A stretch of DNA of 32,000 bases from Candidatus Saccharimonadota bacterium (lineage in GTDB: Bacteria; Patescibacteriota; Gracilibacteria; UBA1369; 2-02-FULL-48-14): the NCBI GenBank assembly GCA_016699145.1, contig CP064962.1, positions 480,001 through 512,000 on the forward strand, given 5' to 3'. Shown one piece after another: positions 21,842 through 25,763 of the stretch; the stretch's first letter is position 1, and each line of letters starts with the position of its first letter. The notes under the pieces are model-generated. The model saw only the letters and a list, made by a program, of their open reading frames with translations. It was not told the DNA's origin and did not search any database. The position numbers were made by a program, and so were the translations under genes.

Positions 21842-22066
21842 ATGAAAAGCTTAAAAGATCCTCGCTATAGAAAGGTGGTCCAAGAATTAAAAACAGCTCG
21901 CCTTTCACGTAATTACACTCAAGAAGAAGTGGCCAAGCTGATAAAGAAGCCTCAGTCTTTTTTATCAAAAATAGAGAACTTCGAAAGGAGAATCGACATT
22001 ATCGAGTTATATGAGTTAATGAAAGTGTACGACTTAAAGTGGAATGAACTTACTCGGGGCTTTTGA
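21842..22066 (+). CDS. XRE-family helix-turn-helix transcriptional regulator
   Basis: LSRNYTQEEVAKLIKKPQSFLSKIENFERRIDI is a typical Cro/C1-type HTH. Confidence 0.8.
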   Translation: MKSLKDPRYRKVVQELKTARLSRNYTQEEVAKLIKKPQSFLSKIENFERRIDIIELYELMKVYDLKWNELTRGF

Positions 22067-25000
22067 AGCTACCCAAAAGCAAGGCGATGCTATCCAATAA
22101 AGCAAGCTTTTGGTCTTTCAAAGAAGCATGAACGACAATTGCCGATCGTGATTGCGATTCGTCCAAATACTTTCTACATAAAAGTGGTAGTAGTTTTGCA
22201 ACCCCTTGTCGATCGCTTTTACGAGCCTTCAAGAATTCAGTCAGAGTCAGAGTGAAGATTTTTTGAGAAGCATCCAGTGGAATGGCATCATCCATAATAA
22301 CCCTCGAAAGGAATTGGACAATAACTCCAAGGGCTACTTTTAGTTCCACCCCATATTCTTCAGACATCACCAACGGTAAGTTGAACTTTTTGATATTTTC
22401 TGGCTCAAGATACGAGATGGGACCGGAACCAAAAACCGCCTGCATCAATGCATCTGTCGTAACGGGTAAAAACCTACAACGGTAACCAGACAAGTACCTA
22501 AAGTAATCTAGGTACGAGCCAAAACTAAGCTTGCCAGTAAGCATCAAGGCTCGGACAAGGGCAAAAGAAGAACAGTACTTAGGCGGTTCTGCGGCTGCAT
22601 CACGTCCATATAAACGTAAACTCAAACCATCATCAGTTAAAATCGCTGAACCAGTTTCAGTGGCAAGTAGGTAGGCATCTTTCAACTCGTCCAATATGTC
22701 TATCTTTGGCTCAGCAGGAAGGTCTGACTTAGGTACAGCCAACTTTGAGCCAAAGTGCCCCTCAATAGCAGTAAGAGCGGCCTCCAAAACCTTTCTTGCC
22801 CTACTCAAATGCTCTTCTTGAACTTGAGAATATGTTAAGCGTCCGTTGGCGTAGCCCATGCGTCCAACCACACCGGGTACCGTACGGAACTTATCGAGGG
22901 CATCAAACAAAAAGTTCACTACAGATTGGGGTATCTGCAAGCCGGGGATATTTTCCAAAATTTCCTGCATCAAACCGGCCTCAGATAAAAAGAGTGCCGA
23001 AGTAACATCCAAATAACATTGCGCACCAGAAATGAGTTCTTTAGCAACGGCATCTTGTTTAGCCTGTTCAGCAAGTGAGCCATCGCTAAGCCAAATAAAT
23101 CCTCGCTGTTCTTGGACAATTTTACCAATTGCATTTGTCACTCCCCCTTGCTGATGAGCGAGAAAAACGAATGGCAAAGGACTCTGACAATACTGCTCGA
23201 AAGCACCATCCCTATCCGACTCCAAAGACTTCATAAACTCAGTCACATTATTGATGTCGAAGTTACCATTTTCATCCAAAACCTGAATAGATTGGATCAT
23301 AGGAGATCCATTTCTAGCGAATTCATTCATTGCCTCTCTAGCTCGCCAAAAAATATACTGTTCCAAAGAGAAAATTTGGGCGATCTTTCTAGGAGGTGTC
23401 CCAGAAAATTTATCACCGGAAAATTCTACAGTCTCTCCAACTTTTTTCCCCAAGACAACACCGTAACGTGGATCAGTAGTTCTTACGGACAATGCGTCCA
23501 ATTCAGCACCATCACCAAAGTGAAACCAACGTTCCTGATTATCAAACCTAACAAAGTTACCTTCTTGTACTTCGTCTTTGGAAATAAAGTTAAAGTCGTT
23601 TTCATCAAAACTACCAGATAAGCCAAACAGCATGCCATATTGTTCTTCGCTAGGCACTCCACAAGCCTGAAAACCCTCAACCACCGACCCGAGGGCCTCT
23701 TTTTTTTGACCAGACCTCAAATACAATTCTGCCTCAAGAAAGACCTTAAACTGAAAACTAAATCCAAATTTCGGATGAGAATTTATAAGTTCGATCGCTT
23801 CTTGATACTGGCCTCTTTTAAGGTAAGCCATGACCACACGTGCCAAAAGGGCCTCTAAGTTTTGAGCATCCAATAATTTAGGAGCCAGAGGGTCTTCCAA
23901 AAGTTGAGATCCAACAGAGATTACCTCCAAAAACTGGCCGAGGTTGAACTTTGCATTTAATAGATTGAGGCGAGATCGAAATAAGTCGATAGGTTCACTC
24001 TCTAGGGTCAGTAGCCTCTCTATCAGCTCAATTTGATCAACCCATGCAGCGACTTCACCAGTGACATCAACGCACAACCTAAGTTGGTTAATATCCAAGT
24101 TATCAATTTTAATTTCACGAAATGCCTCAAAAGCCTCCTTATGGTCTCCATTCTGGTGATGATAAAGCACCCAAGGAAGAGTAGTGCCTTCCTTATCGGA
24201 AGAAGTTTTCAACCACTCTAACAAAGCCTTTCTAATATCAGGAAAATCCTTTAGCGCCACAGTCATGTTATATGTGTATGCAGAGTCATCACCCAAAAAC
24301 TGGAGCACGCCAGTAAAATCACCATCCACTAAAGCACCGATAAAGTCGGTAACACTCTTTTCGCCGATAGCCTCAAAAAACTCCTTCCCCTTCCCAAGAA
24401 GTTGCCCTTTTATTAAAAACTGAAAAACAAGGGTCTTTACGAGACCCTCAGAAAGATTTTCATCGATAGACTTCAGATGACTGAGAAGTGCATCCAAATC
24501 CTGATCACCAACTACCCTCGAAAGTAGCTTCATTAACGCCTCCTCTACAACTGCATCATGTGGAACAACCAAGGACAGTGTTTTGACTTCAGAAAAAACT
24601 TTATCCAAGTCAGCAAATCGACTTTCCGCAGCCAGTATGTCTATCATCTCAACCAACATTGCCAATCTTTGCCTCTCAGAGTCTGTACGCCACATCTTCA
24701 TTTTAGCGAGAGTAGAGTCTATTAACTCAGAAAGACTCGACAGTTCAGCCTTTGTTACTGTCCCACGTTCTTTCCTTTTGAGTCGTCCATTCAACAAAGA
24801 AGCCTTCACCCGATAATTGACCAATGAGTCAGGATTAGCCCGTATTGCTTTCTCAATAAACTGGTCAGCTTTTGCAGTCTCTCCCGCAACCTCAAAACAT
24901 ATGCCATAGACCCTATAGCAGGTGGATGCAGCGCGATTCAAAGTCGGGAACGCAGATTCATCTAGAGTAGAAAGGTCAATTTGAGTACCTTGCCTCAAAT

Positions 25001-25763
25001 TTCGGATAGCCTTCTCAACAGCAAGCAGCCAATGATTCGGATCCATCGCTTCCACTTTATTTAAAAGCTTTAAATTTTCGTCAAAATCGCCCAAATCTAG
25101 CTCCGCTTCAGCTAATAGCAAAAGTGGACGAGTCTCTTCAGGGTAGAGCTTAGATAATCTTTCGTACTCTTTTCGAATGTCTTTATTAGTACCACGAGCT
25201 CTAATCATCTGCGCTTGAAGAAGATCATACTCAAACTCTAAAGCTGGATCACTAGCACTCTGCACAAGTTCCTTGCCTCGTTCCAACATTGCTTGGGCAA
25301 CAGTCTGACACCCACGGTCTAGATCTCTCGCAATCTCATCAAGATAACTGCTAACAATCGCACGGCGTGCAACGTCATCATTTATCTCGAAGAAAGATTT
25401 ATAGAATTTATCCTCATGATCTTTTTTCATTTTCTTAAGTCTCTCAACAGGCCAAACCTCTACGTTATCTGTTTCAATATGATGATTGGCACAAAGTAAA
25501 ATAAGGTTTTCAAACGAACGCCTTTGGTCTGGGGTTTGTTTAGAGTTGTACCTCTCTCCACCCTCTAAAGCAGCTTCTATATGGCAGATTTGACCAAATA
25601 TAGTTCCATCCTCCTTTACCAGCTTTTGATGACAATCAGGAAAAGCACATTCATTTCCCGACAATCCGAAAAGCCGTTTGACTGTTTTTGGAGTGAAGCC
25701 GTCTCTTTTCTGCTTTTTTTGAACTTTAGCACTCGCGGATTTGGCTTTCTTACGTTTCGGCAT
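22050..25763 (-). CDS. 1237-aa multidomain protein: Lys-rich tail, HNH-like nuclease motif, long helical (TPR-like) repeat region, GreA/B C-terminal-like segment, PIN-like domain
   Basis: CAFPDC...ICHIEA...NLILLCANHH (aa ~38-100). FVRFDNQERW...DPRYGVVLGKKVGETVEF (aa ~730-796). YLDVTSALFL...DAYLLATETGSAILTDDGLSL (aa ~915-1060). The ORF itself is unambiguous; the domain calls are by eye. Confidence 0.85.
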   Translation of the reverse strand: MPKRKKAKSASAKVQKKQKRDGFTPKTVKRLFGLSGNECAFPDCHQKLVKEDGTIFGQICHIEAALEGGERYNSKQTPDQRRSFENLILLCANHHIETDNVEVWPVERLKKMKKDHEDKFYKSFFEINDDVARRAIVSSYLDEIARDLDRGCQTVAQAMLERGKELVQSASDPALEFEYDLLQAQMIRARGTNKDIRKEYERLSKLYPEETRPLLLLAEAELDLGDFDENLKLLNKVEAMDPNHWLLAVEKAIRNLRQGTQIDLSTLDESAFPTLNRAASTCYRVYGICFEVAGETAKADQFIEKAIRANPDSLVNYRVKASLLNGRLKRKERGTVTKAELSSLSELIDSTLAKMKMWRTDSERQRLAMLVEMIDILAAESRFADLDKVFSEVKTLSLVVPHDAVVEEALMKLLSRVVGDQDLDALLSHLKSIDENLSEGLVKTLVFQFLIKGQLLGKGKEFFEAIGEKSVTDFIGALVDGDFTGVLQFLGDDSAYTYNMTVALKDFPDIRKALLEWLKTSSDKEGTTLPWVLYHHQNGDHKEAFEAFREIKIDNLDINQLRLCVDVTGEVAAWVDQIELIERLLTLESEPIDLFRSRLNLLNAKFNLGQFLEVISVGSQLLEDPLAPKLLDAQNLEALLARVVMAYLKRGQYQEAIELINSHPKFGFSFQFKVFLEAELYLRSGQKKEALGSVVEGFQACGVPSEEQYGMLFGLSGSFDENDFNFISKDEVQEGNFVRFDNQERWFHFGDGAELDALSVRTTDPRYGVVLGKKVGETVEFSGDKFSGTPPRKIAQIFSLEQYIFWRAREAMNEFARNGSPMIQSIQVLDENGNFDINNVTEFMKSLESDRDGAFEQYCQSPLPFVFLAHQQGGVTNAIGKIVQEQRGFIWLSDGSLAEQAKQDAVAKELISGAQCYLDVTSALFLSEAGLMQEILENIPGLQIPQSVVNFLFDALDKFRTVPGVVGRMGYANGRLTYSQVQEEHLSRARKVLEAALTAIEGHFGSKLAVPKSDLPAEPKIDILDELKDAYLLATETGSAILTDDGLSLRLYGRDAAAEPPKYCSSFALVRALMLTGKLSFGSYLDYFRYLSGYRCRFLPVTTDALMQAVFGSGPISYLEPENIKKFNLPLVMSEEYGVELKVALGVIVQFLSRVIMDDAIPLDASQKIFTLTLTEFLKARKSDRQGVAKLLPLLCRKYLDESQSRSAIVVHASLKDQKLALLDSIALLLGSFKSPE

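Follow-up and report, generated by a model that had tools for sequence, protein, structure and literature searches.

A 32,000-nucleotide stretch of a genome from the candidate phyla radiation (CPR) (Candidatus Saccharimonadota bacterium, assembly GCA_016699145.1, contig CP064962.1, positions 480,001 to 512,000; hereafter “the window”) encodes a 1237-amino acid protein that combines two nuclease domains with a putative sensor of RNA polymerase. Five parts follow one another along the protein: an HNH domain, a TPR array, a GreA/B-C domain, a PIN domain, and a helical tail. The protein is almost certainly an HNH-type member of the TGP (TPR-GreA/B-C-PIN) family, and we refer to it as HNH-TGP. A role in defence or another form of biological conflict is quite probable. 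The best overall explanation, which we consider likely, is that HNH-TGP is a stand-alone immune protein, carried as the main cargo of a serine-recombinase island that is integrated at a tRNA-Glu gene. The product is 100% identical to NCBI “hypothetical protein IPG41_02740” from Candidatus Peregrinibacteria bacterium, which is annotated as hypothetical only. An earlier note on this DNA, made from the letters and their translations, had singled out the same protein as a candidate two-nuclease effector; the motif coordinates given there agree with the translation, and the Lys-rich N-terminus (i.e., MPKRKKAKSASAKVQKKQKR) is present as quoted.

TGP conflict systems were described by Kaur, Iyer, Burroughs & Aravind in 2021 (eLife 10:e70394; PMC8195603), and they have a dedicated Pfam entry, PF20698. 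The conflict system that the earlier note had mentioned is, in other words, real. Thirteen variable N-terminal TGP effectors have been reported, explicitly including HNH; those listed are REase, HNH, PNPase, TIR, SIR2, and peptidases, and the genes mostly stand alone (PMC8195603). HNH-TGP shares with the published systems the order of TPR array, GreA/B-C domain, and special version of the PIN domain, as well as a variable N-terminal effector, a stand-alone gene, and horizontal spread. There is no difference in kind; what is particular to this copy is its CPR host and the surrounding serine-recombinase island, the ends of which are precisely known. Because the architecture, HNH variant included, is already published, the discovery is incremental. 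The proposal that the HNH version is an uncharacterised single-protein defence candidate is supported as regards defence and not as regards novelty. To the published description, we add delimitation of the island at the level of single bases, the CPR host, conservation statistics, and a conserved helical tail that matches nothing on record.

Several lines of evidence support an N-terminal HNH nuclease, which had been proposed from a Cys/His pattern. The pattern itself (CxxxxC...H...N...C..HH, nt ~25479-25649) is present. PADLOC models of HNH effectors match residues ~10-160 far above chance, with E-values from 9e-27 to 1e-19; these include PDC-M68A (9e-27), Shedu SduA (6e-20), and the CBASS “Effector endonuclease” (1e-19), with SAVED_HNH at 2.5e-18. 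Solved structures that match the domain are 9om4 (E 1.8e-12), the alignment of which begins at residue 24 and spans the segment equivalent to the N-terminal helix by which HNH effectors of this type are proposed to tetramerise, Cap5 (7rwm; E 3.9e-7), 8ysq, and 7rwk. Taken alone, the match to Pfam HNH_2 is weak (E 0.049). We counted conservation of HNH residues in an alignment of 30 HNH-bearing homologues, and conservation of all other residues among 96 full-length core representatives, regardless of their N-terminus. C39, C44, H61, R71, N86, C91, and H95 are invariant across the HNH-bearing homologues, and H94 is kept in 27 of the 30.

The closest known relatives of the HNH domain are found in Cap5, the SAVED-HNH effector of CBASS (7rwm, 7rwk), and in the HNH-APAZ protein of SPARHA (9om4). 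The 9om4 structure is cited in published work on SPARHA, a system that combines a short Argonaute with an HNH effector (PMC12738770). Judging from its beta-beta-alpha-metal motif, its His/Asn/His residues, and its Cys/His zinc site, the HNH domain of HNH-TGP belongs to the Cap5/SPARHA clade of HNH effector nucleases. The domains are homologous, with the same catalytic His/Asn/His residues and the same zinc site, and in each case the HNH domain lies at the N-terminus of a sensor-controlled protein. The controlling modules differ: TPR-GreA/B-C-PIN in HNH-TGP, SAVED, which responds to cyclic nucleotides, in Cap5, and APAZ together with a short Argonaute in SPARHA. The HNH domains of SPARHA and Cap5 are proposed to be activated by tetramerisation and then to cut DNA indiscriminately (PMC12738770). 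By analogy, HNH-TGP may also be activated by oligomerisation.

The second nuclease, near the C-terminus, is a PIN domain. Residues 917-1052 align over the full length of PF20698 (“PIN domain associated with the TPR-GreAB-C-PIN system”; E 1.4e-5), and 26 of 30 aligned homologues match the same family, the best with an E-value of 4.5e-19. We modelled residues 850-1237 with AlphaFold2 (AF2; pLDDT 86.8, pTM 0.87). The credible fold matches for this model in the PDB are PIN domains: 3ix7 (probability 0.99), PAE2754 (0.91), a HARP/PRORP RNase P, and the EST1A/SMG6 PIN domain. A putative active site consists of D919, E928, S947, D1029, and D1044/D1045. Among the 96 representatives, D919 is kept in 94, E928 in 77, S947 in 90, D1029 in 93, and D1045 in 95, while position 1044 is D or E in all 96. 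Hence, the PIN domain that had been suggested by an acidic signature is supported by family match, fold, and conservation. As far as can be judged from their residues, the active sites of both nucleases are intact and conserved.

The ~175-residue helical tail that follows the PIN domain lies outside the span of the 138-position PF20698 model. It had been described as lacking a recognisable motif, and searches bear this out: the tail has no Pfam match and no convincing fold match in the PDB or among viral proteins. Indeed, a viral fold library searched with the model of PIN domain and tail together gave nothing credible, and the C-terminal half of the protein has no match among PDB sequences. 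Yet the tail is conserved and all-helical; the AF2 model of this region is confident and all-alpha, and S1065, R1095, S1134, Y1137, and G1138 are near-invariant. Across residues 1061-1237, conservation is as strong as in the PIN domain.

The GreA/B-C domain is recognised chiefly by its fold. For residues 728-815, AF2 modelling based on 30 homologues reached a mean pLDDT of 92.8. When this model was compared with the PDB using Foldseek, the 13 best matches were all GreA, GreB, Gfh1, or Rnk (probability 0.90-1.00). FKBP and SlyD domains appear from rank 16 down, mixed with unrelated proteins, in keeping with the relationship already known between FKBP and the C-terminal domain of Gre factors (PMC8195603). 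GreA, GreB, Gfh1, and Rnk all bind the secondary channel of RNA polymerase, and HNH-TGP has their C-terminal globular fold in common (TM 0.52-0.60 over ~80 residues); the G-K-x-x-G-[DE] signature region of Gre factors aligns with the HNH-TGP domain. Within the family, W746 is kept in 93 and G750 in 92 of the 96 representatives. The resemblance to the GreA/GreB C-terminal domain that had been noted by eye is thus borne out by fold, with weak support from sequence. Gre factors also have an N-terminal coiled coil with an acidic tip, whereas HNH-TGP does not: there is no Pfam match to GreA_GreB_N at E <= 1, and the sequence upstream of the domain is the TPR array. Lacking the coiled coil and its tip, HNH-TGP cannot act as a Gre-type transcript-cleavage factor. 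Conservation extends to the helical connector that joins the GreA/B-C domain to the PIN domain, where P864, L868, and G888 are near-invariant.

About 600 residues between the HNH and GreA/B-C domains had been described as TPR-like. For part of this stretch the description is robust: residues 195-312 match TPR_14 (40.9 bits; cut-off 23.5), TPR_2 (29.0; 27), and TPR_19 (29.4; 25) above the Pfam gathering scores, and solved TPR proteins match residues ~190-330 at an E-value of 1.4e-5. A second segment is supported more weakly, by Pfam signals for TPR, PPR, and ANAPC3 at residues 534-692 and by weak matches of solved TPR proteins to residues ~537-660. The remainder of the ~600 residues probably also consists of helical repeats.

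Using residues 700-1237 of HNH-TGP as the query, we scanned all of a set of 1.84 billion representative proteins and found 206 clusters at E <= 1e-3, 130 of them at E <= 1e-30. Nearly all have a length of ~1260-1280 amino acids and match at the C-terminus. We classified the N-termini of 95 representatives by sequence motifs; a BLAST-based count was set aside, being inflated by cross-matches between TPRs. HNH accounts for 27 of the 95. The most common N-terminus, with 56 representatives, is an unnamed module with the motif GDGGNDG...YYQVYAP, followed by Mrr-like (six, assigned by sequence motifs and not by a family model), transmembrane (three), SIR2 (two), and other (one). Across the family, a constant core is combined with swappable N-terminal effectors. 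In the most common module (P0026, P0027, P0033, and ~50 more), the motifs GDGGNDG and YYQVYAP are followed by FVFND. P0026, the sole member of this group that was scanned, has no Pfam match in the module, which may be an undescribed effector domain.

We read the neighbourhoods of six homologues in addition to that of HNH-TGP. A homologue from Parcubacteria (P0003) lies beside GmrSD and an EcoRI-type methylase, and one from Pedobacter cryoconitis (P0012, an HNH-TGP of the Bacteroidota) lies beside a tyrosine integrase, an Mrr/NA-iREase protein, and a SEFIR-TIR protein. P0004 is next to a VapE-like primase and an HTH_17 gene, and P0002 is next to Bro-N and an HTH_3-SocA/Panacea antitoxin-like gene. 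The remaining two are on conjugative elements: P0011 near a gene for an AAA_13 protein, and the homologue from the Fluoribacter dumoffii plasmid pLD-TEX-KL beside a resolvase on a conjugative plasmid. No neighbour is common to the six contexts. TGP homologues are found in mobile-element or defence contexts and not in housekeeping settings. The earlier note named three findings that would tell against its proposal: unsupported nuclease folds, catalytic residues that vary among homologues, and housekeeping contexts. Instead, the folds are supported, the residues are kept, and the contexts are mobile or defensive.

The HNH-TGP gene had been suspected of riding on a serine-recombinase island, and comparison with empty sites both confirms and delimits the island (Table 1). 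An exact-match scan with the 5' part of the tRNA-Glu gene found eight CPR loci, seven of which, mostly from Peribacteria, have in common with the window some or all of the neighbours YidC ... Nth - DUF4349 ... tRNA-Glu ... ComEC. In two of them, L014 and L015, the homologue of window positions 19192-19328 joins the tRNA directly (...GCTTTCCAATT-TGGTGA-TCCCACGG...), meaning that the island is absent at an intact site in these related Peribacteria genomes. Searches for a long tRNA-derived direct repeat found none; the junction repeat, at only 6 bp, is visible only through comparison with the empty sites. The island has the features of those built around large serine recombinases, i.e., a recombinase at one end, short junction repeats, and empty sites in relatives. 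Its GC content is 42.5%, versus 47-49% in the flanks, and the TGP gene occupies 45% of its length. The recombinase gene, whose product matches a PHROG integrase family (1.3e-43), and the TGP gene are divergently oriented, with a spacer of 76 bp between them. Other cargo comprises the XRE-type HTH gene, which is not kept beside homologues, a winged-helix gene, two small membrane ORFs, and a 261-amino acid open reading frame (ORF) of unknown function.

Table 1. Features of the HNH-TGP protein, its island, and the adjoining Fic gene, in window positions
Feature	Position	Strand	Remarks
HNH-TGP ORF	22050..25763	minus	complete, 1237 amino acids, ATG start
HNH (His-Me finger) nuclease, Cap5/SPARHA type	25389..25700	minus	residues ~22-125
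TPR/helical-repeat array	23589..25376	minus	residues ~130-725; robust ~190-330, weaker ~535-690
GreA/B C-terminal-like (FKBP-like) domain	23364..23561	minus	residues ~735-800, fold match
Conserved helical connector, GreA/B-C to PIN	23019..23363	minus	residues ~801-915
PIN domain, PF20698 type	22584..23018	minus	residues ~916-1060; beta-hairpin/helix insert
All-alpha C-terminal domain	22053..22583	minus	residues ~1061-1237
Integrative island	19326..27496		8,171 bp, empty sites in L014 and L015
Left 6-bp direct repeat TGGTGA, island junction	19320..19325	+	from comparison with empty sites
Right TGGTGA	27491..27496	+	opposite strand is the 3'-terminal TCACCA of tRNA-Glu
tRNA-Glu(UUC), integration target	27491..27565	minus	
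Large serine recombinase	25840..27531	+	Resolvase, Recombinase, and Zn-ribbon domains
XRE-type HTH gene, island cargo	21842..22066	+	convergent with TGP 3' end, 17-nt overlap
Fic-domain gene	18159-19124	minus	just outside island left junction

Function has been investigated for a single TGP protein, Agp, which was compared here by its description. Together with its partner, Bab, Agp of E. coli ECOR25 provides abortive-infection resistance to phage T5, and an S628L substitution in its GreA/B-C domain abolishes signalling (bioRxiv 10.1101/2024.11.07.622273). The statement that the family has not been characterised biochemically is therefore no longer wholly true. Agp and HNH-TGP have the TGP core in common, and in Agp this core belongs to an infection sensor whose function depends on the GreA/B-C domain. 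The proteins differ in their effectors: Agp has an N-terminal BASS11 amyloid motif and signals to Bab, a separate pore-forming protein with a Bell domain, whereas HNH-TGP has a nuclease at its N-terminus and no partner gene, its neighbours being the XRE HTH gene and the serine recombinase. Two extra word-index searches for homologues, one with the C-terminal module and one with its alignment, added a single protein and no Agp-like match from E. coli.

How HNH-TGP might work can be sketched from these relatives. In the model of Kaur et al., the GreA/B-C domain contacts RNA polymerase on the beta' coiled coil by the secondary channel, the PIN domain cleaves the extruded transcript, and the N-terminal effector serves as a back-up suicide arm (PMC8195603). 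Drawing on that model and on Bab/Agp, the GreA/B-C domain of HNH-TGP would dock at the secondary-channel rim and act jointly with the TPR array to report a polymerase that has been captured by phage; the PIN domain would cut the transcript. Sensing could then lead to self-association, such that HNH domains of the Cap5/SPARHA type assemble into active tetramers, which would degrade DNA indiscriminately and abort the infection. We regard this specific mechanism (docking on RNA polymerase, transcript cleavage by PIN, and HNH activation through oligomerisation) as tentative. A fuller version is doubtful: HNH-TGP might be a complete one-protein guard of RNA polymerase that sits on or samples the channel, senses when a phage takes over transcription, acts first as an RNase through the PIN domain and tail, and then becomes a Cap5-like collateral DNase by polymerising, with the tail as a new RNA-handling or oligomerisation module and the 8.2-kb cassette as a vehicle that spreads immunity among CPR bacteria with reduced genomes.

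Several observations weigh against the overall explanation of HNH-TGP as an immune protein, from the identity of individual domains to the proposed function. First, PF20698 scores 25.8 bits, 2 under the gathering score of 27.8. Second, the Foldseek E-values for the GreA/B-C domain are modest (best 7.8e-3), though the list of matches is homogeneous; alignment of the family profile to the signature region of E. coli GreA (residues 104-144) with hhalign is weak (probability 14%), and the “SP” of the Gre signature is not kept in the family alignment. Third, HNH-TGPs, this one included, are known from sequences and models alone. Fourth, PADLOC v2 has no model for the TGP core, meaning that the core is not a catalogued defence system. 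Lastly, no activity of Agp independent of Bab was found (bioRxiv 10.1101/2024.11.07.622273), which leaves the PIN domain unproven as a first line of defence.

An immune function is not the only way to read a nuclease gene that dominates a small mobile island. PIN domains are the classic toxins of toxin-antitoxin systems, the TGP gene meets the XRE-HTH gene at its 3' end, and one homologue adjoins the HTH_3-SocA/Panacea antitoxin-like gene; HNH-TGP could be a two-nuclease toxin that penalises loss of the island, with the product of the XRE-HTH gene or of another island gene as the antidote. The genes are arranged differently in VapBC-type toxin-antitoxin systems, where a small PIN toxin is co-transcribed with its antitoxin. 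The sole small gene adjacent to HNH-TGP is convergent, and not co-transcribed, no partner is kept among the six homologue contexts, and TGP genes mostly stand alone according to Kaur et al. (PMC8195603). HNH-TGP is also a multidomain protein of 1237 amino acids with sensor-like TPR and GreA/B-C parts, unlike the toxins of toxin-antitoxin systems. We therefore consider an addiction or stabilisation module improbable.

Equally improbable is that HNH-TGP is a weapon of the island itself, acting on host RNA polymerase or on rival elements, e.g., by excluding rivals from the tRNA-Glu site, and so favouring transfer or maintenance of the island. Every context that we saw is a mobile element, and the locus is a variable hot spot whose cargo differs from one relative to the next, as would suit such a weapon. 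In practice, however, it would be hard to tell from defence that is borne on a mobile element, and Agp, a related protein, shields the host population against phage T5. A housekeeping factor for transcription or RNA quality control, reaching RNA polymerase through a Gre-like domain, would agree with the best fold matches (GreA, GreB, Gfh1, and Rnk) but is highly improbable, since the Gre N-terminal coiled coil is absent, the family is rare and has swappable toxic N-termini, and the gene lies on an island for which related genomes have empty sites, which essentially excludes this possibility.

TGP proteins are among the few predicted immune sensors that are proposed to watch host RNA polymerase, as opposed to phage nucleic acid or capsid. 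Agp is the sole TGP protein that has been tested, and its PIN domain is without a demonstrated role. Since HNH-TGP needs no partner, it offers a simpler system for addressing Gre-like docking, the role of the PIN domain, and oligomerisation of the HNH domain. Moreover, as a small natural cassette whose ends are known exactly and whose empty sites are seen in relatives, the island makes a clean starting construct; the cassette and the empty sites together show that such systems move between CPR genomes.

Some further features of the island and its surroundings are worth recording. The recombinase ORF passes the right junction at codon 551, and its TGA stop codon (27529-27531) lies within the tRNA-Glu gene, overlapping the anticodon. 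Excision of the island as a circle is predicted to extend the ORF into the island's left end and so to lengthen the product from 563 to 578 amino acids. A scan for promoters and terminators gave signal no better than chance. The low-GC Fic gene was considered as island cargo and rejected, because the left junction maps to the right of it. This gene matches the PADLOC models SoFic (8.6e-40) and PDC-S04 (4e-40). No Fic homologue was found in the stretches of 8 kb or less from the eight related loci, and L014, L015, and L017 have different genes between DUF4349 and tRNA-Glu, such that the region resembles a variable hot spot. Housekeeping genes (GltX, Pta, phosphoketolase, AckA, YidC, and Nth) occupy the window up to ~18 kb; a 660-amino acid ORF in this part (11035-13017, minus strand) has no Pfam match at E <= 1e-4.

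Compared with L014, the window has ~1.8 kb of extra DNA 5' of the tRNA gene (27566-29540). This is an element resembling an insertion sequence, with an HTH gene (27758-28309) and ORFs with an rve integrase core. An exact 300-bp repeat (28452-28751 and 28802-29101, 350 bp apart) splits the transposase of this element and may be either a real duplication or an assembly artefact. Within the island, the XRE-HTH gene has weak, generic matches to defence-associated HTH models (HTH_VI, 6.9e-8; CapH, 1e-4). Directly upstream of the winged-helix (Trans_reg_C) gene (20521-21282) lie three 66-nt direct repeats with a period of 82 nt and 71-77% identity (window 21309-21538), which could be iteron-like sequences or regulator-binding sites of the island.

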